A stretch of DNA of 64,000 nt from Acidimicrobiia bacterium (GTDB lineage Bacteria; Actinomycetota; Acidimicrobiia; Spongiisociales; UBA5794). Positions 10,159 to 48,365 of the stretch are shown piece after piece. The translations under genes and the position numbers were made by a program. The stretch is from contig JALSQW010000056.1 of NCBI GenBank assembly GCA_026985095.1, positions 7,144-71,143 on the forward strand. The letters run 5' to 3'. Position 1 is the first letter of the stretch; each line of letters opens with the position of its first letter. The notes below the pieces were generated by a model that did not search any database, was not told where the DNA came from, and worked only from the letters and a program-made list of their open reading frames with translations.

Positions 10159-10275
10159 CGGATCCCGTCGGCCGGCGAGATCCTCGCACCGATCCCACCG
10201 ATCCCCCCTCGAGGCCATCGAGGACGACCGCCTCGAGGAGGCACCCCGGCGGCCGCCAGGCACTAGCGTCGACCC

Positions 10276-12702
10276 ATGACGACCGGCGCTTCCTCATCGT
10301 CCGATCCGAGCACGCCCCTCCCGGCAGCTCCCGCCCCGGGGTTGTCCGCCGCTGCGGTGGCCGAACGGCGACGGGCCGGTCTCGTCAACGGCAGCCCAGC
10401 GCGAGGCTCCCGGTCGGTCGGGAGCATCCTCGCCGCCAACATCTTCACCCGCTTCAACGCCATCATCTCGGCGATGCTCGCCGTCGTGTTGACCTTCGGC
10501 AGGTTGCCGGATGCGCTCTTCGGTGGCGTCATGATCGTCAACGCCGCCATCGGCATCGTTCAGGAGCTCCGCGCCAAGCTCACGCTCGATCGCCTCCGGC
10601 TCATCGTCACGCCGACCATCGGCGTCGTCCGAGACGGCGAGGCATCGCAGATCCCGGTCGACGAGATCGTCCTCGGCGACGTGATGATCCTCCGTCAAGG
10701 AGACCAGATCCCGGCCGATGGAGAGGTGCTCGCCGCCGATGGGCTCCAGGTCGACGAGTCCCTCGTCACCGGTGAAGCCGACCCGGTCGATCGCGTCCCT
10801 GGCGATCCGGTGCTGTCCGGATCGTTCGTCATCGCCGGAAGCGCGTACGTACGGACCACCGCCGTCGGCGAAGCCGCCTACGCCCGCCGTCTGGCCGCCG
10901 AAGCTCGAGCGTTCTCCCTCGCTCGAAGCGAGCTGCGCGACGGGATCGACCGGATCCTCAGTTTCGTCACCTGGCTCATCGTGCCGACCGCCGCGCTGTT
11001 GGTGTGGAGCCAACTCCAGACCGGACACGGCGTGTCGGCCGCGGCGGTGTCGACCGTCGCCGGTGTCGTCGGGATGGTCCCGCAGGGGCTCGTGCTGCTC
11101 GTGTCGATGGCGTTCGCCGTCTCGGTGATCCGACTCGGTCGGCGCGATGCCCTCGTCCAGGAACTCCCTGCGGTCGAGACCCTGGCCAGGGTCGATCTCG
11201 TCGCCGTCGACAAGACCGGTACGTTGACGACCGGTCGGATGCGCGTCGACGCGGTGGAGCCGATCGACGTCGACCCGGACGAGCTGCGAGCGGTCCTGGC
11301 CGCGATCGCCGTCACCGAACCGCATCCGAACCCGACCCTGGCGGCGATCCGGAACGGCTACCCCGACGATCCGGGATGGACGATCACCGGTCGGGTTCCG
11401 TTCTCGTCACAGCGCAAGTACTCGGCGGTGGAGTTCGCCGGCCGCGGCGTGTGGCTCCTCGGGGCGCCGTCGAGCGTCGGAGCCGGACTGTCGGAGGAAC
11501 AGCGAAGGAGGGTCGCCTACCTGGCGTCCACCGGCCGGCGGGTCCTGCTCGTCGCCACGGCCGAACGCCTCCCGGACCCGTCGGGGCTGCCGGACGCGGT
11601 CGTGCCGGCGGCGATCGTGTCGATCATCGAAGAGGTGCGGGACGACGCCGAGGCGACGATCGCCTACTTCCTCGAGCAGCGGGTCCGTGTCAAGGTGATC
11701 TCGGGCGACGACCCCGGCACGGTCTCGGCGATCGCCACCAAGGTCGGGATCCCAGGGGCGGAGCGGGCCGTGGACGCACGGGACCTTCCCGCACCCGGGA
11801 CCCCCCAGCATCGGGAAGCCGCCGACCGGTACGTGGTCTTCGGTCGGGTCGTCCCCGAGCAGAAGCGGGACCTCGTCACGGCGTTCCAGGACGCCGGTCA
11901 CGTCGTTGCGATGACCGGCGACGGCGTCAACGACGTACCGTCGCTGAAGCGAGCCGACATCGGCATCGCCATGGGTTCGGGATCGCCCGCCACTCGGGCG
12001 GTGGCCCAGCTCATCCTCCTCGACGATCGATTCGCATCGCTGCCGGCGGTCGTGGCGGAGGGCAGGAGGGTGATCGCCAACATGGAACGGGTCGCCAAGC
12101 TGTTCCTCGCCAAGACCGTCTACGCCACGTTGCTGGCGATCGCCTTCGGCGTCGCGGTGCTGCCGTTCCCGCTGCTTCCGAGGCATCTCACGTTGATCGG
12201 GACCCTGTCGATCGGGATCCCCGCGTTCGTGTTGTCCTTCGAGCCGTCCAACGAGCCTGCTCGTTCGGGGTTCGTGGGTCGGGTGCTTCGTTTCGCCATC
12301 CCTGCCGGTCTGGTCGCGGGTCTGGTCGGATTCGAGACCTTCGTGATCGCCCGCAGCCCGTTCGTGCGGATGTCCCTGGAGGCGGCGCGCAGCGTCACCT
12401 CGATCACGCTGCTGGCGGTGGGGCTCCTGATCCTGCACGAGCTGATCGAGCCGCTGGACGCGTCCCGCCGCCGCCTGCTGGCCGCCTTGGTGACGGCCGC
12501 CGTCGCCGCCGTCGCGGTCCCCCCGGCCCGACGGTTCTTCGCTCTGGAGGTGCCCGATCTCGCCGGCGCGGCGATCGTCGTCGTCGGCGCGTTGACGTCG
12601 CTCGTCGCGTTGCACGTGGCGGTGGTCGCGGTGGCATGGATCGCGGATCGATGGTTCCCGGACCGGGCCGGACTCGAACGTGAGGTCCTCAGGAGCGGCT
12701 GA
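10276..12702 (+). CDS. cation-transporting P-type ATPase (HAD-IC family)
   Basis: DKTGTLT phosphorylation motif, TGES actuator motif, MTGDGVNDVPSLKRADIGIAMG hinge motif, and about 10 TM helices. Confidence 0.9.
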   Translation: MTTGASSSSDPSTPLPAAPAPGLSAAAVAERRRAGLVNGSPARGSRSVGSILAANIFTRFNAIISAMLAVVLTFGRLPDALFGGVMIVNAAIGIVQELRAKLTLDRLRLIVTPTIGVVRDGEASQIPVDEIVLGDVMILRQGDQIPADGEVLAADGLQVDESLVTGEADPVDRVPGDPVLSGSFVIAGSAYVRTTAVGEAAYARRLAAEARAFSLARSELRDGIDRILSFVTWLIVPTAALLVWSQLQTGHGVSAAAVSTVAGVVGMVPQGLVLLVSMAFAVSVIRLGRRDALVQELPAVETLARVDLVAVDKTGTLTTGRMRVDAVEPIDVDPDELRAVLAAIAVTEPHPNPTLAAIRNGYPDDPGWTITGRVPFSSQRKYSAVEFAGRGVWLLGAPSSVGAGLSEEQRRRVAYLASTGRRVLLVATAERLPDPSGLPDAVVPAAIVSIIEEVRDDAEATIAYFLEQRVRVKVISGDDPGTVSAIATKVGIPGAERAVDARDLPAPGTPQHREAADRYVVFGRVVPEQKRDLVTAFQDAGHVVAMTGDGVNDVPSLKRADIGIAMGSGSPATRAVAQLILLDDRFASLPAVVAEGRRVIANMERVAKLFLAKTVYATLLAIAFGVAVLPFPLLPRHLTLIGTLSIGIPAFVLSFEPSNEPARSGFVGRVLRFAIPAGLVAGLVGFETFVIARSPFVRMSLEAARSVTSITLLAVGLLILHELIEPLDASRRRLLAALVTAAVAAVAVPPARRFFALEVPDLAGAAIVVVGALTSLVALHVAVVAVAWIADRWFPDRAGLEREVLRSG

Positions 12703-14428
12703 TGCGGGCGGCCCGGTCGCGTTCGGAGCGTCGGAGGCGCCGTTCGATCGCTGCCAGGGTCCCGTCGTCCACCGGGAGGTCGAACGCTCCGGAGATCGCA
12801 GCGGCGAGATCGGCGCGATAGTCGTGGCCGTGGGCGCGGAACTCGCCGGGGACGACGTCGGCGGCGTTGTTGGTGTCCACGGCGGTGAGCCAGAACGTCG
12901 CCGCGGGAACCCAACGTTCACGGGCCGGCACGGAGGCGGGTCGGCCGTCCGTGTCGAGCCATGAGGGACGGTGGGTGAGGAGCGACACGTCGAACCGGGT
13001 GACCGGATCTTCGGGATGATCGAGGAACGAGTGGCACCATCGCCGACCCGATCGCCGGGCCTCCCGGATGGCCGCACCGTTGGTGAACCCGAGGGCGTAC
13101 GATGGGCCGACGGCGAGGGCCCGGTATCGCCACCTGCTGCGGTACGGCGTCCCCACCCACAGGGCGGCGGCGATGCCGAAGCGGTCGTGGCGGGCCGGTT
13201 CGGCATCGTCTTCGGCAAGGTCGAACGCGTCCTGACCGGTTCTGGCTCCCAGACTCTCTCCGTACACGACGAGTCGGGGTGGGGAGTCGAGGCCGTCGAG
13301 ACGATCGGCGATGGCTTCGAGGAGGGCGTGGTTCTGGCGCGCCCCGACGTGGACTCGGTCGGGGGACAGGACCGAGGGGCGCTTCCCGTATTGGATGGCG
13401 ACCGTGGCGACGTCGCCACCGGTCAGGTACTCGGCCGCTTCGACGGCGATCGGGTTGACGTACCCGGTCCCGGCCGGTGATGCGACGATGATCGTCGAGC
13501 GGGTGAAGGCGCCGGTTCGCTCGAGCTCGTCGACGGCGAGCTCGACGCGCTCGCCGACGGTGGGAGCCGATCCCACGCCGACGTAGACCCGGATCGGCTC
13601 GGCGACGGCGGTGCCGGTCACCTCGGCGATCCGTTGCCTACCGGCGGCTTCGGAGACGAACCGGCGTCCTTCGACGGTGAGGTCGTCGTAGGCGACGAGA
13701 CTTCCCGGGCCGCCCGACACGGTGGGTTGGGTCGGGGGTTCGCCGTACCCGGGCTCGACGCGGTCCTCGGCGGCCTCGGCCGCCTCGACGACCCTCCGAG
13801 CGGCTCCGACGATCGTCACGACGGTGGGGGCGACGGCGATCGGGCCGGTGGCGGCGAGCCACCTCGACGGACGGCCCCCCGCCGCGGCGGCGGATCGCTC
13901 GGCCATCCACCTCGCGGTCCACGTCTCGGTTTCGGTGAGCAGATCGACGGCGAACGAGAGCGCCGTGCCGGCGGCGAGCTCTCGGGCCGCGCCGCGACCG
14001 CGTCCGGCGCCGGTCGCCCGGTCCAGCGCCACCGCAGCGCCGGCGGCGCCGGCCGTCGACGCGGCGAGCCGCAGCGGGGAGGCGGTGAGGGGGGCCGCCG
14101 CCCGGGCCAGGGCGCCGGCGACGAGGCTCCATCCCAGCGCGCGGAACGCCACCGAGCGGAGGGGAACGGGGTCGGGTGGGGGGCGGAGACGGCTGAGGAC
14201 GGCGGCGCCGGCCAGTGCGCCGACGGCGGCGAACGGCCCGCCTGGGCGCAACCGGGGCGGGAGCAGCCGGAGGGAACGGGCGCCGAAGGCGGCGGCAGCG
14301 GCGGCGGTGAGCGTCGCGCCGGTGACCGCCAGGACCTGGTCGGATCGGTGCTTGGGCATCAAGGACGGCTGGAACGTCGACACCGCGGCGAGCAGTCCCA
14401 CGCCGAGGCGACCCCGATCCCTCGTCAT
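12689..14428 (-). CDS. membrane-anchored alpha/beta-hydrolase family protein
   Basis: N-terminal multi-TM region followed by an alpha/beta-hydrolase domain (VVYGESLGARTG nucleophile elbow). The start was chosen at the MTRDRG ATG to avoid overlap with the downstream gene. The longer ORF begins at 14497. Confidence 0.6.
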   Translation of the reverse strand: MTRDRGRLGVGLLAAVSTFQPSLMPKHRSDQVLAVTGATLTAAAAAAFGARSLRLLPPRLRPGGPFAAVGALAGAAVLSRLRPPPDPVPLRSVAFRALGWSLVAGALARAAAPLTASPLRLAASTAGAAGAAVALDRATGAGRGRGAARELAAGTALSFAVDLLTETETWTARWMAERSAAAAGGRPSRWLAATGPIAVAPTVVTIVGAARRVVEAAEAAEDRVEPGYGEPPTQPTVSGGPGSLVAYDDLTVEGRRFVSEAAGRQRIAEVTGTAVAEPIRVYVGVGSAPTVGERVELAVDELERTGAFTRSTIIVASPAGTGYVNPIAVEAAEYLTGGDVATVAIQYGKRPSVLSPDRVHVGARQNHALLEAIADRLDGLDSPPRLVVYGESLGARTGQDAFDLAEDDAEPARHDRFGIAAALWVGTPYRSRWRYRALAVGPSYALGFTNGAAIREARRSGRRWCHSFLDHPEDPVTRFDVSLLTHRPSWLDTDGRPASVPARERWVPAATFWLTAVDTNNAADVVPGEFRAHGHDYRADLAAAISGAFDLPVDDGTLAAIERRLRRSERDRAARISRS

Positions 14429-14441
14429 CGTGGGCGGGCCG

Positions 14442-14795
14442 TCAGTCCGGCGTGACGATCTGGAGCACCCACGAGACGAGGGCCAGGACGAGACCACCCA
14501 AGAGGGTCACGCCGAAGCCGGTGCTGGAGAGCCCCAGGTCCAGCGTGCTGCCGAGCCAGATGACGATCGCCATGAGGACGACGTTGAGGACGAGGGTGAA
14601 CAGCCCCAGGGTCATCACCCTGAGCGGGAGCGTCAGGAGCTTCGCGACGGGTTTGATGACCGCGTTGACGACGCCGAGGACGATCCCGAGCCCGAGCAGG
14701 ACCCAGATGCTGCCGTCGAAGTCGAGTCCGGGAACGAGCCAGACGGTCAACCAGACGGCCAGGGCGTTGACGACGAGCCGGATCAACAGTCTCAT
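14442..14795 (-). CDS. phage holin family 4 (DUF360-like) small membrane protein
   Basis: 117 aa with 4 TM helices. The LTLPLRVMTLGLFTLVLNVVLM pattern is typical of the Phage_holin_4_2 family common in actinobacteria. Confidence 0.6.
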   Translation of the reverse strand: MRLLIRLVVNALAVWLTVWLVPGLDFDGSIWVLLGLGIVLGVVNAVIKPVAKLLTLPLRVMTLGLFTLVLNVVLMAIVIWLGSTLDLGLSSTGFGVTLLGGLVLALVSWVLQIVTPD

Positions 14796-15190: not shown

Positions 15191-16672
15191 TCAGGAGCTG
15201 CCGGGCGGTTTCGGACAGACGTTGTTGAGGTTGTCGAGCCCGAGTTCGGTGACCGCCCGGTCGGGATCCTCGAGGACGAGCTGCACGTGTTCGTGGACGA
15301 GGTCGATGTTGGCGATCCGTCCCGGTTTCCCGTCGTCGCGGAACTTCAGGTGGTACTCGGGCGGGATGAACCGCACCGAGACGATGTTGTCCCGGTCGAT
15401 CTTCGGGAGCAGCTCGACGAGCTGGGGGAGGGCGTCGATCGGGATGTCGGTCTGGACGGTGTTCTTGACGACGTCGGCGAGCCGACCGAAGTTGAGGAGC
15501 AGGTCGGTGGGCTCGGTCTGGTCGAGCACCGCTTCGAGCACGCAGCGCTGGCGGTTCATCCGGAAGTAGTCGGAGTCCTGATGGCGGGTGCGGGCGTAGG
15601 CGAGGGCCTGCTCGCCGTTCATCTTGTGCTCGCCTGGTTCGATGACGAGTTCCCCGATCGTTCCGTCCAGGTACGGGTAGGCGTCGTCGACGATCCGTTC
15701 GGGCACGTAGATGTCGACCCCGCCGAGGGCGTCGATGAGTTCGACGAACCCGTCGAGGTTCACCAGCGCGTAGTAGTTGATCGGGATCCCGAGGAACTCC
15801 GAGACGACGCCCTTGACGGCGTTCACCGACGGCTCCTGGGGCCCGGGGAAGGCGTCGGGGTAGCGCTCGCCCATGATCCACAGTTCGTTGATGAGCTCCG
15901 GATAGCAGTCACAGTCCCAGATCCCCATGCCGTCGGGGAGCGGCGCGTAGGTCCAGTTGCGGGGGATCGAGAACATCGCGACGTCGCCGGTGGCGGGGTC
16001 GATGCTCACGGTGATCATGGTGTCCGTTCGGATGCCGGTGCGGCCGACACCGAAGTCGCCGCCGAGGAGGAGGATGTTGAGCCGGTCGAGTCCGTCCCAC
16101 AGCGGCGCCCCGGTCTGCGCCGGCTGGGTGGTCGTGGTCGACGTCGTCGGCGTGCCCGGCTCGGTGGAGACGGTCGTGCCGTCGGCGGGTGGCGTGGTGC
16201 TCGTGGTGGACGACGCCGGGGCGGCGGCGGGTTCGTCGGGACCGAAGACCGTCGTGATGAGGTTGTACTGCACCATGTCGTAGTAGCCGAAGACGACGTG
16301 GGGTGTGAACACGACGATGGCGAGTGCCCCGACCGCGGCTGCGACCGCGGCGCGGCTGGTCGCCCCGGCGGGACCGGTGCGGCTCGCGGTTCGGTAGGCG
16401 TCGTCGGCGGCCCACAGCCGGTAGGCGAGGAGCAGGATGTTGACGACCATCATCGCGGCCAGGCTGGTCGGTCGGACGAACGCGGTGAGCGCGGCCACCT
16501 TGTCCCGGAAGAAGAACGCGATGATCGCCACGATGACGGCGTCGACGACGTAGAGGCGGACGGCCTTGCGGCGGTCGCCGACGAGGAACTGGCCGAGCCC
16601 CGGGATCACGGCCGAGGCGAACGCCGCGAGGAACGGGTGGACGGTTGGTCGGGGGTCCGGTCGGGTGGTCAT
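15191..16672 (-). CDS. LCP (LytR-CpsA-Psr) family glycopolymer ligase with an N-terminal 3-TM extension
   Basis: LCP core motifs (LLLGGDFGVGRTGIRTDTMI..., YARTRHQDSDYFRMNRQR) and a Thr/Ser/Pro-rich linker. Confidence 0.85.
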   Translation of the reverse strand: MTTRPDPRPTVHPFLAAFASAVIPGLGQFLVGDRRKAVRLYVVDAVIVAIIAFFFRDKVAALTAFVRPTSLAAMMVVNILLLAYRLWAADDAYRTASRTGPAGATSRAAVAAAVGALAIVVFTPHVVFGYYDMVQYNLITTVFGPDEPAAAPASSTTSTTPPADGTTVSTEPGTPTTSTTTTQPAQTGAPLWDGLDRLNILLLGGDFGVGRTGIRTDTMITVSIDPATGDVAMFSIPRNWTYAPLPDGMGIWDCDCYPELINELWIMGERYPDAFPGPQEPSVNAVKGVVSEFLGIPINYYALVNLDGFVELIDALGGVDIYVPERIVDDAYPYLDGTIGELVIEPGEHKMNGEQALAYARTRHQDSDYFRMNRQRCVLEAVLDQTEPTDLLLNFGRLADVVKNTVQTDIPIDALPQLVELLPKIDRDNIVSVRFIPPEYHLKFRDDGKPGRIANIDLVHEHVQLVLEDPDRAVTELGLDNLNNVCPKPPGSS

Positions 16673-16799
16673 CGCGGCTCGGATGCTAGGTGGCAGCGTC
16701 GAGTATCCGGTGGTTCGTCTGTCCGGTGGTTCCTCGAGATGTCATGGAGATGTCCCGCCAGGGCGAGGCGGTCCGGTAACCTCGGCGGGTCCCGACCCC

Positions 16800-18734
16800 G
16801 TGTGGATCCGAGCCGTGACCGACGCCGACGTGAACCCTCCGCAGCGCAGCGGGCCGTCCCGCGCCAGGAACCGCTACGCGTACCTGACGCGCGACGGGAC
16901 GCTCGACATCGTTGTGGGCAGCTTCGTGGCCGGTGTCGCCGCCTACGTGTACCAGTTCGTCGGCGGTCGGGTCCTGGGGCCGCATGCGTTCGCGCCGATC
17001 GGGGCGCTGCTGACCGCCCACTTCCTGACGTTCGTCATCATCTTGTTGCCGATCGAGCAGTTCGTCATCCGGCGTCTGACGTTGGGGGCGCGGGGCTGGG
17101 TGGTGCCGTTGCGGGCCCAGGTGCTGGCGGCGGTGACGGCGATCGTCGCGGCGGGGGTGGTGTGGGCGACGTCCGATGCGTATTTCGAGGGCAACTCGGC
17201 GTTCGTGTGGTTCGTGGTCGCCACGGTGGTGCTCCACTTCTTCTTCGCGGTCGGTCGCGGCTATCTGGCGGGGTTCCGTCGGTTCCGCGAGTACGGCGTC
17301 GCCAGCGGCGGCGCTTCGGTGCTGCGGCTGGTCATGGCCGGGGCGATCGTGATGATCAGCCCGACGGTGGTGGGGTTCGCCTGGGCCCACATCCTCGGGC
17401 CGCTGATCATCTTCGTGTTCCGTCCCTTCCGGACGCCACCCGAGGCGCCCGCCGGCAGCCGGGGTCGGCTGGCCGACGAGCACGTGGCCGCGGTGGACGA
17501 ACGGGGCCTGTTGACCGGGTTGGTGCTGTCGTCGGCGGCCTCGCAGGCGCTGCTGTTGTCGGGTCCTCTGGTGGCGGGATGGCTGGGGGCCACCGCCGCC
17601 GAGTTCTCGATCCTGTACGCGACGTTGCTGCTGGCGCGGGCGCCGCTGACGTTCGGATACAACCTCCTCGCTCGGGTCCTGCCCCCGTTCACCGAGATGG
17701 CGGCTCGGGGCGAGCGCCCGGAGCTGCGGGCGTGGGCTCGGGGTCTGGCGATCGCCGGGGCGTTCCTCGGTGTCGTGGCTGCCGGTCTCGGGTACCTGTT
17801 CGGTCCTTCGATCGTGGCGCTGGCGTTCGGAGCGGGGTTCCGGCCGTCGGCGGTGGTCGCCGCCTTGGCTGCTGCCGGGGTCGTCTTCGCGGGTGCCGGG
17901 CTGTTTATCGGCCAGATCCTCGTGGCGCGGGGACGGGCGTCCCGTCTGGCGGTGTCGTGGGCGGTCGCGATGGCGGCCGCCGCGGCGACGCTGGCCGTGC
18001 CGTTGACCGATCCGGTGTTTCGGGTCGCGGTCGGGTTCGTGGTCGGCGAAGCCACCGCCCTGCTGGCGTTGGTGGGGGTGGCGCTGTTGCGGGATCCCCA
18101 GGAGGGGGCGATCTCGCACGGCTACCTGGTGATGAAACGCTCGATGGACATCGGGATCGCGGTGGCGGCGCTCGTGGTGCTGTCGCCGGTGCTGGCCGCC
18201 GCGGCGGTGGCGGTACGCCTCGACTCGCCCGGCCCGGCGTTCTTCCGCCAAGCCCGGACGGGGCGCGGAGGTGACGAGTTCTGGATGGTGAAGCTGCGCA
18301 CGATGGTGATCGACCACGACGAGGAGGTGTTCAGGGAGCATCTCCGCAAGATCCGGGAGTCGGGGGACGACGAGCCGTACACGATCAAGATCGACGACGA
18401 TCCCCGCATCACGCGGGTCGGGGCGCGGCTGCGGAAGTGGTCCCTGGACGAGCTCCCGAACCTGTGGAACGTCCTGCGCGGTTCGATGTCGCTGGTGGGG
18501 CCGAGGCCGCTGGTTCCGCAAGAGGCGGAGCTCGTCGGGTTGGACAACCCTCGGTTCACCGTCAAGCCGGGAGTGACCGGACTGGCCCAGGTGATGGGCC
18601 GCGACGAGCTGTCGATCGCCGAGCGCACGGCGTTCGACGAACGCTACGTCGCCGAGGCGTCGATCCGTCTCGACGTGGCGATCTTGTTCCGGACGCTGGT
18701 GGCCGTGTTCCGTCAACCGGGGAAGCAGGACTGA
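16800..18734 (+). CDS. fusion protein: PST/Wzx-like polysaccharide-biosynthesis membrane domain (about 430 aa) + bacterial sugar transferase (polyprenyl-phosphate glycosyl-1-phosphate transferase, PGT) domain
   Basis: The 16566..18734 frame is continuous with no stop. The N-terminal region carries the Wzx-like motif [14 protein letters not shown] and about 10-12 TM helices. The C-terminal 205 aa begin MKRSMDIG... and carry PGT catalytic motifs ([31 protein letters not shown]). The true start (GTG near 16800/16815) is uncertain because the ORF's 5' end overlaps the divergent LCP start. Confidence 0.65.
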   Translation: [644 protein letters not shown]

Positions 18735-18815
18735 GCGCCGATGCCCGGGGTGTCCCCCGAGCAGGGGCCGTCCGGGCTCGGGAATCCGCTCGATGCGGGG
18801 CCGGTTGGTCGTGCC

Positions 18816-19226
18816 ATGAGTGAGATCGCGACCTTGTTGAACGAAGGAGATCCGCTGATCGCGGTCGTTGGTGCCACCGACGACCCGACGAAGTACGGTG
18901 CCACGATCTACCGGGATCTGAAGCGGAAGGGATACCGGGTGGTGGCGGTCAACGACCGGCGTGACCGGGTCGACGGCGATCCGGCGTACCGGGACCTGCG
19001 GTCGCTTCCCGAGCGTCCCGACATCGTCGACATCGTGGTGCCTCCGGCCTCGGCGGCGGCGGTGGTGGAGGACGGGTTGGAGCTGGGTCTGGAGCGTTTC
19101 TGGCTTCAGCCGGGCGCCGAGTCGCCGGCGATCGTCGAGCGTCTGGTGGCTGCCGGGGTCGACCATCTCGTCAACGCCTGCATCATGACCCGGAGTCGGG
19201 TGCGCCGTGGCGACGGCGTCGGGTGA
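18816..19226 (+). CDS. CoA-binding domain protein (YccU-like)
   Basis: LIAVVGATDDPTKYGATIYRDLKRKGYRVVAVN matches the CoA_binding_2 fold. The start is taken at MSEIATLL. Confidence 0.65.
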   Translation: MSEIATLLNEGDPLIAVVGATDDPTKYGATIYRDLKRKGYRVVAVNDRRDRVDGDPAYRDLRSLPERPDIVDIVVPPASAAAVVEDGLELGLERFWLQPGAESPAIVERLVAAGVDHLVNACIMTRSRVRRGDGVG

Positions 19227-19321: not shown

Positions 19322-19969
19322 ATGGCAGTCGAGGATCTGCGAGCAGCTCTGCTCGCCGTCCCAGGGGTGGCGTCCGTCGAGGTGACGGAGGTCGCCGATT
19401 CCGAACCCGTGGTCCGTCTCTGGCTGGACGGGACCCGGGAGGCACCCGATGTGCAGCGTGACGTCGATCACGTGATCTCGTTGCGGGGGTACCGGCGCAA
19501 GGCCGTGCCTGAACCTGCCGCGGCGGTCGCCGAGCCGCCGGGCAACGGACGTCGCGGCGGTCTCGGGCGGGGTCTCGAGACGTTGATCCCGGTGGCGCTC
19601 GAAGAGGAGCCGCCGAGTCATCTGCATGCGGTGCCGCGGATCCGGTTCACGAAGCTGTCGATCGAGGAGTCCTCTGGTGGGGTGTCGGTACGCGCCATCG
19701 ACGCTTCGGGTCGGGAGCGGGCGGCGACGGTCCATGGCGACGGGGAGCGGGCGCTGCTCGATGCGGTGGCTGCGGCGGTGGCTGGGCTCCACGGCGTCTC
19801 CGCTCCGCGGCTGTTGGCGGTCGAGGAGCAGGCGCTGGCCGGGTCCGACGTGGTGACGGTCGTCGTCGAGCTGAACGACGGGTCCCGACGGGCCGGCGCG
19901 GCGGTGATCTCGGGTGGCAAGCCCTTCACGGTGGGCAAGGCCGTCGACGCTGCGCTGTCCGTGGACTGA
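19322..19969 (+). CDS. hypothetical protein with an internal ParB-box-like GRRGGLGRGLETLIP motif
   Basis: 215 aa with coding GC3. Its stop overlaps the next gene's ATG (TGATG). Confidence 0.5.
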   Translation: MAVEDLRAALLAVPGVASVEVTEVADSEPVVRLWLDGTREAPDVQRDVDHVISLRGYRRKAVPEPAAAVAEPPGNGRRGGLGRGLETLIPVALEEEPPSHLHAVPRIRFTKLSIEESSGGVSVRAIDASGRERAATVHGDGERALLDAVAAAVAGLHGVSAPRLLAVEEQALAGSDVVTVVVELNDGSRRAGAAVISGGKPFTVGKAVDAALSVD

Positions 19970-20301: not shown

Positions 20302-20442
20302 CGAGCGGGGCGGTGTGGTGTCGCCGAGGTCGGGTCGTCGGGTGGTTCGCTTCGGTGTCCTCGGTCGATATCGTGGCTCGGGAACCTGTAAGGATCGACG
20401 TTGCGACGCGTCTCCTCTTCGAAGCGACGAAAGGAACGACCG

Positions 20443-21276
20443 ATGAGGATGAGGACCTTGTCGATGATGTGCTGTCTGGCGTTCGTTGCCGCCGCCTGCG
20501 GCGGGGGAGGGACCGGTGCGACGACGACGCTCCCGCTCGCCGCGGCGACCACGTCGTCCACGACGTCGTCGTCCACGACGACGACCACGACACCGCCGGC
20601 GACGTCCACGTCGACGACGTCGTCCACGACGACGTCCAGCACCACGTCGACGACGACGACCACGATGCCGTCCACCACGACGACCACGACGGTCGCGGCC
20701 GCTTGCCCGACGGCACCGGCGATCCCGGTGGGCGCCACGGTGTCGGCGACCAAGAGCATCGACGCGGACGGCGATGCCGCCCTCGATGTGATGACGACCT
20801 ACCTGGTCGGCGCCGATTGGCATCTCCGGGTCGACTTCGGCGCGGGTGGAAGCGCCGACGTCGTCGTCCCGGACGTGTCGCCGCTGACCGGGGCGCTGGC
20901 GCTCGGCGCGTTCGACATCGAGGGTGACGGCACCGGCGAACTGTTCGTGAAGGTCGACGCCGGAGCTCACGCGATCCTCGTGGGGCTCTACGACGTGGAC
21001 GGGTGCGGGCTGGTTCCGATCACGATCGGTGGCGTGCCGGCGGTCTTCCCGGTCGGCGCCTCGGTGGGGAACTTCTCCGGGTTGAACTGCGACGGTTCGC
21101 TGCTGTGGACCTTCGAGGGCACCCTGATCGAGGGTTCCGAAGGGATGTACGAGGCGATGGACATCCCCTACACCCTCGAGGGGCACGTGCTGACCCAGGG
21201 CTTCGGGGACGGCGCGGTGGTGTCGGCCGACGAGATCGGGCCGCTGCTGACCTGCGGAGACGTGGACCTGGGATGA
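20443..21276 (+). CDS. lipoprotein with a Ser/Thr-rich linker, unknown function
   Basis: Lipobox FVAAAC follows the MRMRTLS start. The T/S tract is about 70 aa, followed by a folded domain with several Cys. Confidence 0.55.
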   Translation: MRMRTLSMMCCLAFVAAACGGGGTGATTTLPLAAATTSSTTSSSTTTTTTPPATSTSTTSSTTTSSTTSTTTTTMPSTTTTTTVAAACPTAPAIPVGATVSATKSIDADGDAALDVMTTYLVGADWHLRVDFGAGGSADVVVPDVSPLTGALALGAFDIEGDGTGELFVKVDAGAHAILVGLYDVDGCGLVPITIGGVPAVFPVGASVGNFSGLNCDGSLLWTFEGTLIEGSEGMYEAMDIPYTLEGHVLTQGFGDGAVVSADEIGPLLTCGDVDLG

Positions 21277-22521: not shown

Positions 22522-22551
22522 CACGCCTGCGGGTAGCATGTGGCCCGCTTC

Positions 22552-22625
22552 GGGCGTTTAGCTCAGTTGGCGAGAGCGCTTCCCTTACAAGGAAGAGGTC
22601 GGCGGTTCGAGTCCGTCAACGCCCA
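22552..22625 (+). tRNA. tRNA-Val (anticodon TAC)
   Basis: Cloverleaf: acceptor GGGCGTT/AACGCCC, D-arm GCTC..GAGC, anticodon stem CTTCC/GGAAG with loop CTTACAA, T-arm GGCGG-TTCGAGT-CCGTC, discriminator A. Confidence 0.9.
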
Positions 22626-22695
22626 CCGGGCGGCGGCCGCCTATCGGCAAGGCAACGAAGAGCTCGGCGACGAGATCGTCGATCAGGCGGAGGAG

Positions 22696-23503
22696 TTGGC
22701 CATCGAGATCGCCACCACCAAGGCACAGCAGACCAACGAGCCGGGGGTGCTGCTGACGTTGGCGGCCCAGGCCCGGAGTCTCGGCCGGCCGGACATCGCC
22801 CAGAGGGTCATCGACAAGGCACTCGAGATCGTCACGGACGACCTGGCGTCGAGGACGGAGGGCGATACGGGCCTCGGGACGCCACCGTTCGATCCGTGCA
22901 CCGCCACCTTGGACGAGGCCCGTGAGTACATCGATGCGGTCGGTCGGGTGTTCATCCTCGGCGGTCACGAGACCACGACGGGCAGGAGGTGTCTCGCCAA
23001 CGTGAGGACGACCTACGAACGGGTGCACGACTATCAGCTCGCGGCCGACGAGTGCGGCAACCTGGTGTTCACGGCTATCGACGAGGTTCCCGGCTGGAGC
23101 GGGCTGATCGCGTTGGAGATGCGCACCTGCGACGCGTCGGGTGTGGACGGGCACGATGACGATCGACGTCACCCTCTCCGCCGGTGGCGGCACGGGTCGT
23201 CAGACGGGCGTCGCCGACGTCGCGGTGACCCTCGAGCTGGGCGACGTGCAGGCCTCGAACGGCATCCAGCTCGACCGCACGATGACCTTCGAGGCCGCAG
23301 GCGAGAGCGTGCAGGTGTCGAATCCGTTGGAGGGGACGATCACCTTCGGGGTCGACGCCCTGAACGCGACGGCCAGAGCCGTCGTGGACTTCCCGAGCTC
23401 GACCGAGACCGTGTCCGCCGAGGGCATGTCGTTCTCGATGCCGGTGCAGGGGATCCGCGCCGAGTTCACCGGCTCCCTCAGCCACGACGGCGAGTGCGGT
23501 TGA
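22696..23503 (+). pseudogene. disrupted/frameshifted hypothetical gene immediately 3' of tRNA-Val (two coding-like frames joined near 23141-23160)
   Basis: Frame 1 (22540 ORF) has coding GC3 from just after the tRNA but no ATG; only TTG 22696 or a nearby GTG could start it. It turns into Arg-rich junk after about 23160. Frame 2 (23141..23503) has coding GC3 and a proper stop. Confidence 0.4.
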
Positions 23504-23747
23504 TCCCGGCGGCCGAGGCCCCGAGATCGGTCCCGCCCACTCCCGCCGAGCCGGCCGCACGCTCTGCAGGCCAGAGGACGAGCGTGGACCGCACATGAGC
23601 ATCTTCCGGAAGCCCCGGGATCTCCCCTTCGCCGCGTCCAGGCCCCGAACCTGTTCCTCGGGCGTCCCCGTGAGAGACGTCCCAGCGCCGCGCCTTCTCA
23701 CCAGCGCCCACCTTTCCCTGTCTCGACGGTCATGACATGCGCTCCCT

Positions 23748-45787: not shown

Positions 45788-46639
45788 ATGGCCACGCCAG
45801 ACGACCGATCGACCCCGAAGATCCTCCTCGTCGAAGACAACCCGTTGCATGCCCGCCTCGTCATGACGATGCTGAGCGAAGCCTGGCCGGGGTTCGACAC
45901 CTTGGCCCAGGCCAGACGCCTCGATTCCGCCCTCGAGCTCGCCGGCACGGCCTCGCCCGACTGCATCCTGCTCGATCTCGTCCTCCCCGACGCCGACGGG
46001 GTCGAAGCGGTGGAGGCCATGGTCGCCGCCGAGCCCGATGTCCCGATCGTGGTGCTGAGCTCCCACGACGACGACGCGACGGCGCTGCGTGCCCTCGCCG
46101 AAGGCGCCCAGGACTACCTCGTCAAGGGCATCGTGGACGCCGAGGGTCTGGCACGGGCCATCCGGTACGCGATCGGCCGGCATGCCACCCGATCCACGCC
46201 GGGCCGACGTCGGGTCGTTCCCTTCCCGACCCTTCCGGAACCGCCGGGCGCCGCCGACGGCCCGCCTCCCGCCGGTTCGGCCCTCATCGACCGGCGCGGC
46301 ACGATCCGCTACCTGGAAGAGGGCGTCGCCGAGATGCTCGGTCGTCCCCTTCACGAGATCGTCGGGTCCTCGATCGCCACCCTCACCCATCCCGACGACG
46401 TGCCGATCTGGGACGATGCCCTCGCAGGCACCACGGCGGTCATCGACGGCACACGGTCGATCATCGTCCGTGTCCGCCACGGCGCCGGCCACGATCAACG
46501 AGTGACCGTGCAGCTCGATGGCCTGCGGGGTGGGTCGGGGGAGATCGAGGCGTATCTCGCCACCTACCATCCCCACATGGAGGAAGGCACCGTCGCCTCG
46601 GGTGGCACCTACGTCGTCATGTCCGACTGGAGCGGGTGA
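45788..46639 (+). CDS. response regulator: CheY-like receiver + PAS domain (no DNA-binding output)
   Basis: Receiver Asp residues (LLVEDNP, DLVLPDADG). PAS-like C-terminus (TIRYLEEGVAEMLGRPLHEIVG). Confidence 0.75.
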   Translation: MATPDDRSTPKILLVEDNPLHARLVMTMLSEAWPGFDTLAQARRLDSALELAGTASPDCILLDLVLPDADGVEAVEAMVAAEPDVPIVVLSSHDDDATALRALAEGAQDYLVKGIVDAEGLARAIRYAIGRHATRSTPGRRRVVPFPTLPEPPGAADGPPPAGSALIDRRGTIRYLEEGVAEMLGRPLHEIVGSSIATLTHPDDVPIWDDALAGTTAVIDGTRSIIVRVRHGAGHDQRVTVQLDGLRGGSGEIEAYLATYHPHMEEGTVASGGTYVVMSDWSG

Positions 46640-47930
46640 ACGAGGAAGGTTCCCGGGCCGGGAAACCACCGACCAGGACGACCCCGCCGGCGACCAACGC
46701 CACCAGCTCCCAACGCACCTGACCGCCGGTGTCGACGATGCCGCGAACCACCAAGAACGCGATACCCACGATCGTCGCGGCGACCCCGATCGCCGTCAGC
46801 CACGGCGTCGGTGAGGTCACCACCGGCCGGACCCGATGCTCGAACCGGCCGAAGATCCACAACAGCGGCCACGTCGCGGCACCCAGGACGACCAGCCACA
46901 AGGGCCGTGTCCACCACCACGCCGCCGACAGCGGTTCGATCCCGAATCCGACGCCGAGGCCGTAGCCGGCCAGGACCACCAGGGCCAGCGCGGTGAGATG
47001 CCACAGGTACAACGTCATGATGACCGCCTGGATCGACACGACCACCGTCCACGGTCCCGTTCGCCTCAGGAACCGGTTGGCGACGGGTTCGACGGCTCGG
47101 ATCGCGAAGTACTGGACGGCCGTCAGCGCCAGCAGGGCCGCCGTCGGAGGCAGCGTGTTGTTCCTCGTCGCGCCCGGGATCCCGACCATCGAGATCGGAT
47201 ACACCCCGCCGACCGTCGACGCCACCAGGACCACCGCCGCGATCGCGGCGCCCACCCCGATCGCACGCGGCGACGGCCGGCGCTCCTCATCGGCCCACCG
47301 GTAACCGAGCTGATGGGCCGTGAACCACACGAACACGTAGTTGCTCCACCCGATCCAATCCTGCCCCGTCGCCGCCCTGGCAGCGTCGACGACGACGGCG
47401 GCCGTCGTCCCCGCCACGATCGACCACCAGCCGAGACGTTCCCACACCCGCAACGTGACCGGTACCGCCGCGATGACCAACAGATAGACCGCCAGGAACC
47501 ACAGCGGCGTCACGGCCGCCAGGCTGCCGCTGCGGACGAGCGCCGGGTCGATCCCGGCCGCTTGCGTCGCGAGGACCAACGCGAGCCAGGTGAGGAGGAA
47601 GGGCACCACCGGGGTCAGGAGCCGCCGGAACCGCACGACGATCCACGCCGCCGGTTGCACCCCTCGAGCCTCAGCCGACCGGAAGGACCGCAGGTTGGCG
47701 TAGCCGCCGGCGATGAAGAACACCGGGATCACCTGCACGATCCATGTCAGCCAGGTGGTCCAGGAGGCCAACTCGAGGATGTTGGTGAACCGAAGCGCGC
47801 CATCGTCGACCCACACCGCGGCTGCCAGCCAGTGGCCGAGGACCACCAGCGAGATCGACACCGCCCGGGCCAGATCGACGGTGCGGTTCCGGTCGTCGGG
47901 CGTGGCTTGGACGGCGCTTCGGATGTCCAT
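46617..47930 (-). CDS. acyltransferase 3 family membrane protein (OafA-like)
   Basis: GGGAGGAG ribosome-binding site. 10-11 TM helices. Acyl_transf_3 motifs (SISLVVLGHWL, FFIAGGY). Confidence 0.8.
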   Translation of the reverse strand: MDIRSAVQATPDDRNRTVDLARAVSISLVVLGHWLAAAVWVDDGALRFTNILELASWTTWLTWIVQVIPVFFIAGGYANLRSFRSAEARGVQPAAWIVVRFRRLLTPVVPFLLTWLALVLATQAAGIDPALVRSGSLAAVTPLWFLAVYLLVIAAVPVTLRVWERLGWWSIVAGTTAAVVVDAARAATGQDWIGWSNYVFVWFTAHQLGYRWADEERRPSPRAIGVGAAIAAVVLVASTVGGVYPISMVGIPGATRNNTLPPTAALLALTAVQYFAIRAVEPVANRFLRRTGPWTVVVSIQAVIMTLYLWHLTALALVVLAGYGLGVGFGIEPLSAAWWWTRPLWLVVLGAATWPLLWIFGRFEHRVRPVVTSPTPWLTAIGVAATIVGIAFLVVRGIVDTGGQVRWELVALVAGGVVLVGGFPAREPSSFTRSSRT

Positions 47931-48010
47931 GGTCTCCTCCCGCCCAGGAGGGTACCGGGGGCGCGTCCCCGGACGCGGAGCGACCCCCGTTCCCGGGGGT
48001 CGCTCCATGC

Positions 48011-48365
48011 GGCGAGTCCGTCGGTAAGCCGGATTCTGTCGTGGGCGATCATCTATCTGGGGCCGACGTTGCCGCCGACCTCGATGCGGCCTACCCGGGA
48101 CGTGACGGGCGGGCCACCCTGTCCCTGTTCGGCCTTGCTCCGGATGGGGTTTGCCGAGCCGTCCCGGTCGCCCGGGACGCTGGTGGTCTCTTACACCACC
48201 GTTTCACCCTTGCCTGTGCCCGTTGCCGGGCCATCGGCGGTCTGCTCTCTGTTGCACTTTCCGTCGGGTCACCCCGCCTGGGCGTTACCCAGCATCCTGC
48301 CCTGTGGAGTCCGGACTTTCCTCGACCGGGGTCGCCCGGCCGCGATCGCCTCGCGAACTCGCCTC
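48011..48365 (-). ncRNA. rnpB: RNase P RNA, bacterial type A
   Basis: The minus strand reads GAGGAAAGUCCGGACUCCACAGGGCAGGAUGCUGGGUAACGCCCAGG...AGUGCAACAGAGAGCA...GGGUGAAACGGUG...GUAAGAGACCAC...AAACCCCAUCCGGAGCAAG...ACAGAAUCCGGCUUA. These are the universally conserved P4, CR-II, CR-III and CR-V blocks. The ends are approximate. Confidence 0.85.

Follow-up and report, generated by a model that had tools for sequence, protein, structure and literature searches.

The DNA analysed in this study is a stretch of 64,000 nucleotides from an Acidimicrobiia bacterium (contig JALSQW010000056.1; G+C of about 69%), hereafter called the window. Coordinates are positions in this 64-kb window, and residue numbers refer to a 639-amino-acid (aa) fusion protein unless stated otherwise. 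The gene of this protein joins, in one reading frame, a transporter-like N-terminal domain (N-domain) with 12 predicted transmembrane (TM) helices to a monotopic phosphoglycosyl transferase (PGT) domain. An LCP glycopolymer ligase gene lies upstream of it in divergent orientation, and a CoA_binding_2 gene follows downstream. As a rule, a Wzx-type flippase and the PGT that initiates synthesis are two proteins, and Acidimicrobiia are an abundant, almost uncultured actinobacterial class. To our knowledge, it is not settled how flippases are supplied with substrate and kept from flipping unfinished intermediates, and a conserved single-chain PGT–flippase would give structural and biochemical work on substrate hand-off a complex of fixed 1:1 composition. 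The locus had been pointed out in an earlier sequence-only reading, which described a Wzx-like flippase domain fused to a polyprenyl-phosphate sugar transferase. The fusion gene and its parts are as follows.

16815..18734, + strand: fusion gene, 639 aa, comprising a MOP/Wzx-like 12-TM domain, a short linker and a monotopic PGT domain
16899..18086, + strand: transporter-like N-domain (aa 29-424), 12 TM helices arranged 6+6, predicted N-in/C-in
17637..17639, + strand: codon of Arg275 (TM8), invariant across 107 fused and stand-alone members
18123..18722, + strand: monotopic PGT domain (aa 437-636), with a predicted re-entrant helix-break-helix at 437-470 and then a cytoplasmic catalytic domain
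18447..18452, + strand: codons of Asp545-Glu546 in the SLDELPN motif, aligned to SLDELPQ of WbaP, at the catalytic dyad position of monotopic PGTs

The fused gene and its relatives

The open reading frame (ORF) at 16566..18734(+) contains no in-frame stop. Third-position G+C ranges from 0.78 to 0.96 in every 150-nt block from about 16866 to the end of the ORF and is not high in its first 300 nt, so the real start of the gene is placed near 16800-16830. Within this range, GTG 16815 is the likely start, as the public collection contains an identical 639-aa protein (P0001). The junction of the two domains lies inside one coding frame, since third-position G+C stays high across it. Positions 16815-18734(+) are a single uninterrupted codon-biased gene, and the fusion is real and not an artefact. 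The sequence-only reading had described about 430 aa of codon-biased polytopic membrane protein running into the PGT without a stop; the stop-free ORF, the continuous codon bias and the 12 predicted TM helices agree with this description. The two domains are connected by a linker of 13 residues that is conserved among relatives (...SHGYxVVKRSxD...), and the full-length AlphaFold2 (AF2) model of the fusion protein had a pLDDT of 83.5 and a pTM of 0.84.

Searching with the N-terminal 432 aa alone retrieved 422 proteins. Nearly all of the best 120 of these 422 are 616-674 aa long, have PF02397 as their sole precomputed domain and share 60-100% identity with the query, and the named sources among them are Acidimicrobiia metagenome-assembled genomes (MAGs). 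Public annotation calls the fusion proteins merely 'sugar transferase', 'glycosyltransferase' or 'hypothetical', and more than 120 clusters of proteins of about 640 aa are found in the protein collection. A genome scan using one genome per GTDB species, with loci traced by tblastn and ORF tracing, yielded 74 loci. Every one of them comes from an uncultured MAG, and the label is Acidimicrobiia, Acidimicrobiaceae or Actinomycetota in almost all cases. In 64 of the 74 loci, the two domains share one frame without a stop, far more than chance could account for; among the remainder, six are cut by the contig end, three are frame-changed and one (L062) is a short contig without the rest of the gene. 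In L050 and L057, a frameshift lies inside the N-domain and the N-domain/PGT junction is still in frame. The 64 in-frame assemblies are independent, originate from different studies and technologies, and include contigs of 0.6-2.7 Mb. Other assemblies and related genomes, to which the sequence-only reading had pointed for an overlooked stop or frameshift and for co-occurrence of the fusion, thus show the same in-frame junction in these 64 loci.

Separate genes are found in a homologous locus, L084 (46% identical), which encodes a 418-aa stand-alone N-domain homologue and a 212-aa Bac_transf protein with an overlap of 8 nt between the genes (...GAT GGC TGA over ATG GCT GAC...). The fusion accordingly seems to have arisen when a wzx-like gene lost the stop that set it apart from the gene of a small PGT overlapping it. 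The same locus could be read in favour of an assembly or sequencing artefact, or a pseudogene, in which a wzx-like gene and a small PGT gene were wrongly joined, since a single indel would join the two genes of L084; a frame change somewhere in the gene is also seen in three of the 74 loci. Against this explanation stand the 64 independent assemblies in frame with a conserved linker, the more than 120 clusters of fused length and the continuity of codon bias across the junction. An assembly artefact is excluded by the number of in-frame loci and the length of the contigs among them, and the explanation as a whole retains almost no probability.

Fusions that are 60-70% identical were also found in six loci with other labels (L012, L018, L022, L024, L026 and L060; Acidobacteria, Kiloniellales, Saprospiraceae, Gemmatimonadota). 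Errors in the binning or labelling of Acidimicrobiia contigs probably explain these cases, in view of their 60-70% identity to the rest. A second fused paralogue (about 65% identical) is present in some Acidimicrobiia MAGs (L002/L033, L016 and L023), where it lies directly after ftsK and before a pabB-like gene and has neither an LCP nor a CoA_binding_2 neighbour. Two fused copies each are carried by the MAGs MFD03804.bin.2.108 and MAG_seacave_67.

The two domains of the fusion protein

The C-terminal domain matched PF02397 Bac_transf with 196.8 bits against a cut-off of 27 bits (E 2.9e-58), covering profile positions 1-178 of 179 and residues 446-637 of the 644-aa translation; this was the sole Pfam match. 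Its alignment to the catalytic domain of solved WbaP (residues 278-474, E 2.5e-38) runs from end to end, and the KRxxDI, LSP, SLDELPx and VGPRP motifs are all present. It also matches PglC by sequence, and it shares with WbaP a helical insertion that PglC lacks. Residues K441, R442, D445, P458, D545, E546, P548 and G562-P563-R564-P565 are invariant in 47 orthologues. In the AF2 prediction, the re-entrant segment consists of helices 437-455 and 457-470 with a break at L456-S457-P458, and a Foldseek search with the full-length model matched PglC (E 1.5e-8, TMt 0.79) as well as WbaP. Among NCBIfam models, only the C-terminal halves of the EPS_sugtrans (TIGR03025), WbaP and WcaJ models were matched, below their full-length cut-offs; TIGR03022 and TIGR03025 were matched from model position ~250 onward only, likewise below the cut-offs. 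Judged from family membership and motifs, the C-terminal domain is an intact monotopic PGT with a catalytic core nearest to the WbaP/hexose-1-P type. The assignment of the C-terminal 205 aa to a complete small PGT, beginning ...VMKRSMDIG, is consistent with the near-complete Bac_transf match of the region from residue 430 to the end, the alignment to WbaP 278-474 and the invariance of the motifs.

The N-domain contains 12 TM helices according to hydropathy and both AlphaFold models, and its two sets of six helices are split by a charged loop of about 30 residues (203-231). At least 16 Lys and Arg residues occur in the predicted cytoplasmic loops versus one in the predicted outside loops; this charge distribution therefore indicates an N-in/C-in topology, which would place the PGT domain in the cytoplasm as needed. 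The topology prediction called for by the sequence-only reading is in this way compatible with a polytopic transporter. A domain-only AF2 model built from an alignment of 107 diverse relatives had a pLDDT of 92.5 and a pTM of 0.90. In Foldseek searches of the PDB, in which the queries were predicted and not solved structures, the full-length model matched at E≤1e-3 exclusively MOP-superfamily transporters besides PglC and WbaP, and all 45 matches of the domain-only model at E≤1e-3 were MurJ, MATE or WzxE (about 430-480 columns, prob 1.00, TMq 0.49-0.68). A MOP-superfamily fold of the N-domain is thus well supported at the level of predicted structure. Foldseek E-values slightly favour MurJ/MATE (best 7e-6 to 1e-4), and WzxE is matched with a TMt of 0.57-0.66 over about 430 columns.

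Two other identities of the N-terminal region were rejected. A WbaP-type N-terminus disagrees with the absence of PF13727 and with 12 TM helices instead of a 4-TM bundle plus a cytosolic domain, and the sequence-only reading had correctly set the region apart from the WbaP N-terminal/CoA-binding module. A Wzy or O-antigen-ligase-like domain was dismissed because no such fold occurred among the Foldseek matches. An RxLGPxxFG-type motif had also been noted in the membrane region; a motif of the R-x-L-G...F-A/G type is indeed present near the N-terminus, and R52, L54, G55, A60 and P61 are at least 90% conserved in the wider family.

Among orthologues, conservation is about equal in the N-domain and the catalytic domain. 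Averaged over the alignment columns of 47 orthologues, the commonest residue has a frequency of 0.775 in the N-domain and of 0.785 in the PGT domain. Only R275 (TM8) and W382 (TM11) are invariant across the 107-member family, and R52, E81, R86, R148, R171, Q244, R287 and Q367, all inside predicted helices, are at least 80% conserved in the same 107 members. R275, W382, R52, E81, R148, Q244 and R287 are common to the N-domain and its stand-alone relatives. Wzx and MurJ bind the diphosphate-sugar head group via cationic residues lining a central cavity, and a central region rich in arginine would be expected in a transporter of diphosphate lipids.

The branch of the MOP superfamily to which the N-domain belongs was examined with a profile scored against 1.84 billion representatives. 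The N-domain family comprises 1164 clusters at E≤1e-3 (about 1,160 at 50% identity) and 153 at E≤1e-30; most members are stand-alone proteins of about 400-450 aa, and a few have about 590-650 aa. Among 107 near-full-length members, eight match PF01943 Polysacc_synt (best E 9.3e-7), one matches PF13440 and five match Bac_transf, and no match to the MatE (PF01554) or MurJ (PF03023) models was found in these 107 relatives. The match of the relative P0269 to PF01943 is in register (residues 37-212 to profile positions 3-180, E 0.0058); for scale, E. coli WzxE itself scores 33.9 bits on PF01943. Stand-alone members are named 'O-antigen/teichoic acid export membrane protein' by IMG.

Neither Pfam nor NCBIfam gave a match in the first ~435 residues of the window protein, even at E≤10. 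When the family profile was compared by hhalign with single E. coli WzxE, WzxC, MurJ and MdtK sequences, probabilities were below 1%; the WzxE and MurJ alignments lay in roughly equivalent regions and were statistically not meaningful. Comparison with a WzxC alignment was insignificant, with a shallow template (Neff 1.4, members all at least 86% identical). Hmmsearch and phmmer comparisons of the family with E. coli Wzx, MurJ, MdtK, Wzy and ThrP gave no discrimination. A 78-residue profile match to FieF among PDB sequences (E 1.5e-4) was rejected as a chance TM-helix match, as FieF is a cation-diffusion facilitator of a different fold and the match was unsupported by the fold search. The N-domain is predicted to represent a divergent MOP-fold family that escapes Pfam and NCBIfam. 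The evidence for placing it with Wzx/PST proteins is indirect and consists of the weak PF01943 matches, the IMG naming, the count of 12 TM helices and the gene context. The Wzx-like flippase of the sequence-only reading is supported with one reservation: the MOP fold is recovered in two confident AlphaFold models, but the proposed comparison of residues 1-430 with Polysacc_synt gave no match for the window protein even at E≤10. The analysis thereby exposes a sizeable family with a predicted MOP fold, of which thousands of members are annotated just as 'sugar transferase' or 'hypothetical'.

Two further members of this family differ in architecture. P0122 (593 aa, L009 8001-9782) consists of a 12-TM N-domain followed by about 190 aa without a Pfam match and has no PGT; an LCP gene lies about 500 nt downstream. 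It may carry a different C-terminal partner on the same transporter scaffold. In P0205 (596 aa), the N-terminal half of a MOP-like domain (profile 33-290) is joined to a rhamnosidase-like six-hairpin glycosidase (PF17389, PF17390), which could be either a genuine fusion or a chimera of gene calling.

Conserved neighbours and the proposed pathway

The fusion gene is surrounded by the following features.

15191..16672, - strand: LCP glycopolymer ligase gene, 493 aa; PF03816 112.7 bits, E 2.2e-32; TIGR00350 98 bits
16673..16814, no strand: divergent intergenic region of 142 bp between the LCP and fusion genes, presumed shared promoter region
18741..19226, + strand: CoA_binding_2 (YccU/PH1109-like) gene, 6 nt after the fusion stop; PF13380 E 1.3e-30
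19322..19969, + strand: conserved 215-aa ORF without a Pfam match; tblastn homologues at the same position in most loci, 27-61% identity

In the LCP protein, a Ser/Thr/Pro-rich linker connects an N-terminal membrane segment to an extracytoplasmic LCP domain, and the protein matches solved TagV, TagU, TagT, Cps2A and MsrR (E 3e-19 to 1e-10). The CoA_binding_2 protein matches solved 1y81, 1iuk and 2d59 and is an ordinary member of the YccU/PH1109 type. Both neighbours had been named in the sequence-only reading, as a divergently adjacent LCP ligase and a separate YccU-like CoA-binding gene, and the PF03816 and PF13380 matches confirm them. The true start of the CoA_binding_2 gene may be an internal ATG near 18816; its homologue in L001 has 132 aa. 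The gene is probably co-transcribed with the fusion gene. A promoter and terminator consensus scan around the fusion gene gave nothing above shuffled expectation, with no sigma-70-type consensus in the 142-bp region, and no Rfam family was found in or near the module.

The gene order in the clade of the window is LCP (divergent), fusion, CoA_binding_2 and the conserved 215-aa ORF. The LCP gene is adjacent in 57 of the 74 related loci and the CoA_binding_2 gene directly downstream in 51 of the 74, and many of the loci lacking either neighbour are short contigs. Whether the 215-aa ORF is part of the module is uncertain; its 'GGLGRGLETLIP' stretch resembles a ParB N-terminal motif. In fused homologues whose N-domains are only 41% and 35% identical, an LCP gene still lies directly beside the fusion gene, here convergent and downstream, and no glycosyltransferase was found within 10 kb of these two homologues. 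An LCP gene also overlaps the start of a stand-alone homologue with 45% identity. Stand-alone members at greater distance belong to typical polysaccharide clusters with GT2 and GT4 glycosyltransferases, epimerases, UDP-glucose dehydrogenase, DegT aminotransferase and nucleotidyltransferase. No GT2 or GT4 glycosyltransferase was found among the scanned large ORFs of the 64-kb window, and the conserved module contains no ABC exporter. LCP adjacency that survives rearrangement, together with fusion to, or overlap with, a PGT, speaks most strongly for a role of the N-domain in handling the lipid-linked PGT product.

We consider it likely that the fusion protein is a bifunctional inner-membrane protein which both starts and translocates a polyprenyl-diphosphate-linked glycan that is then ligated to the cell wall by the LCP protein. 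The PGT domain at the cytoplasmic face would transfer sugar-1-phosphate from a UDP-sugar to polyprenyl phosphate and yield Pren-PP-sugar, a step that follows from the strong PGT family membership and the intactness of all motifs. The lipid-linked sugar might then be extended by glycosyltransferases encoded elsewhere, and the 12-TM MOP-fold domain of the same polypeptide would flip the lipid-linked glycan to the outer leaflet, in the manner of Wzx and MurJ. We infer this flipping from the fold, the conserved intramembrane Arg/Gln/Trp residues and the gene context. The LCP phosphotransferase would finally move glycan-1-phosphate onto peptidoglycan or another wall acceptor and free polyprenyl phosphate, as its family membership and conserved adjacency suggest. 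More speculatively, the CoA_binding_2 protein could be a regulatory or nucleotide-sensing partner acting in trans. The 'CoA-binding' domain of unknown function (DUF) of WbaP senses uridine nucleotides (PMC10942596), and nothing was found that ties the YccU/PH1109-type CoA_binding_2 protein to a uridine-nucleotide-sensing role. A single polypeptide that initiates and possibly translocates a glycan had been called an unusual architecture; the retention of the fusion in frame in 64 of the 74 loci shows this architecture to be real and conserved, with flipping by the N-domain as its predicted part. The arrangement suggests that Acidimicrobiia may attach a simple phospho-linked glycan to the wall via a compact module of fusion protein and LCP.

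Several points weigh against this interpretation. No glycosyltransferase, polymerase or sugar-nucleotide gene was found near the module, either in the window or in its relatives. By fold, the N-domain cannot be told apart as Wzx, MATE or MurJ; neither the window protein nor the family consensus matches PF01943 or PF13440 even at E≤10, and profile and HMM comparisons with E. coli WzxE, WzxC, RfbX, MurJ and MdtK were insignificant. Wzx normally flips completed repeat units, and a tie to the first enzyme is hard to reconcile with multi-step assembly. All sequences stem from uncultured MAGs, and the functions are predicted.

A different explanation, which we regard as rather improbable, is that the N-domain is a degenerate, non-transporting scaffold or regulatory module for the PGT, as is the 4-TM bundle plus DUF of WbaP, and that another protein flips the product. 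It accords with the lack of any match of the window protein to a flippase sequence model, and with the non-catalytic N-terminal membrane and regulatory modules carried by large PGTs (PMC10942596). However, monotopic PGTs such as PglC anchor by the re-entrant helix and need no extra TM helices (PMC10942596). The N-domain is, moreover, conserved as strongly as the catalytic domain among orthologues, and its invariant and charged intramembrane residues are common to stand-alone relatives in polysaccharide clusters, where a flippase is expected.

Less probable still, to the point of being hard to credit, is that the N-domain is an active MOP transporter for an unrelated substrate, a MATE-like exporter or a MurJ-like lipid II flippase, whose fusion to the PGT is incidental. 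The best Foldseek E-values, which go to MurJ and MATE and not to WzxE, would fit such a transporter, as would the second fused paralogue beside ftsK in some genomes. Yet none of the 107 relatives matches a MATE or MurJ Pfam model, compared with nine of 107 for the PST models, and the N-domain ends at 12 TM helices without the additional C-terminal helices of MurJ. Linkage to a PGT, fused or overlapping, and to an LCP gene is also conserved across 35-100% identity and across rearrangements, which is unexpected of an incidental fusion.

Within the preferred interpretation of a protein that initiates and flips, a minimal 'make, flip, ligate' pathway can be formulated, in which the fusion and LCP proteins are self-contained and no cytoplasmic glycosyltransferases take part. 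A polyprenyl-PP-monosaccharide would be handed within one polypeptide to the flippase domain, and the flipped sugar would be ligated by LCP as a single sugar-1-phosphate decoration of peptidoglycan, or would prime extracytoplasmic extension. Such a pathway is attractive because the module lacks glycosyltransferases and the first enzyme is physically coupled to the flippase domain. We nevertheless judge it unlikely, because in other bacteria the genes for wall polymers, among them tagO and the LCP genes, are often dispersed. If true, it would amount to a minimal system of wall glycosylation, built on a MOP family that escapes current sequence libraries, and to the first natural example of initiation and translocation of a lipid-linked sugar being covalently coupled. 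If the parts work as an ordinary Wzx pathway with glycosyltransferases elsewhere, the protein would be a tidy domain fusion of moderate interest.

Comparison with known systems places the parts of the fusion protein as follows. Monotopic PGTs comprise small, large (4-TM bundle plus PF13727) and bifunctional classes (PMC11257628, PMC10186338, PMC10942596), and the named partners in bifunctional PGTs (Bi-PGTs) are acetyltransferases and glycosyltransferases (PMC11257628). The C-terminal 200 aa of the fusion have the same full core as PglC and WbaP/CpsE/WcaJ, with the re-entrant helix, the Asp-Glu dyad motif and PRP. In contrast to large PGTs such as WbaP, no 4-TM bundle plus PF13727 (CoA_binding_3) precedes this core. 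The fusion protein resembles the Bi-PGT class in having a second, presumably functional domain on the PGT core, but the partner is a 12-TM transporter-fold domain and not a soluble enzyme.

The N-domain is like Wzx/PST proteins (WzxE, PDB 9g9p) in its 12 TM helices, predicted MOP fold, N-terminal R-x-L-G...F-A/G motif and cationic intramembrane residues, and in its genetic linkage to a PGT and a downstream ligase. It differs in showing no significant sequence match to PF01943/PF13440, WzxE, WzxC or RfbX, with few relatives matching weakly, and in being covalently fused to the initiating enzyme, whereas Wzx/PST flippases are separate proteins. The same two-lobed 6+6 TM fold is found in MurJ and MATE. 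MurJ carries extra helices beyond TM12, whereas the N-domain ends after TM12 and the re-entrant helix of the PGT comes directly next; PF03023 (MurJ) and PF01554 (MATE) are both absent from the 107 relatives, and HMM and phmmer comparisons with E. coli MdtK were insignificant. The context of the fusion is glycopolymer synthesis and ligation, and not peptidoglycan precursor synthesis or drug efflux as for MurJ and MATE.

The logic of LCP-dependent attachment (TagO/TagTUV; Cps2E/Wzx/Cps2A; mycobacterial Lcp1/arabinogalactan), namely a PGT-initiated polyprenyl-PP-glycan, export and LCP phosphotransfer, is shared by the proposed pathway. Unlike these systems, initiation and presumed flipping would reside in one polypeptide, and the module lacks a glycosyltransferase, polymerase and ABC exporter. 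In full-text literature searches, no description of a PGT–flippase fusion was found; the primary survey (O'Toole et al. 2021 PNAS) was outside their coverage, and an earlier mention is possible. The catalytic and transporter folds are known, and the conserved covalent architecture is apparently undescribed.

Other features of the window

Upstream of the LCP gene (10267-14795) lie genes for a P-type ATPase, an Abhydrolase_9 membrane protein and a 117-aa 4-TM 'Phage_holin_4_2' protein, in an order that is kept in many related MAGs. Downstream of the module, a 291-aa ORF at 20401-21276(+) has a lipoprotein-like sequence (…LAFVAAAC GGGG), a long Thr/Ser-rich run and no Pfam match; its product could be a glycosylated surface protein. 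The only tRNA of the window, tRNA-Val (anticodon TAC), is located at 22552-22627(+), and the ORF at 22540..23598, which runs through it, is probably not a gene over this stretch. RNase P RNA class A (RF00010, 277 bits) is encoded at 48009-48361(-). A long ORF with an Acyl_transf_3 match at 46617-48203(-) overlaps the 3' part of this RNA, so its real start should lie further downstream.

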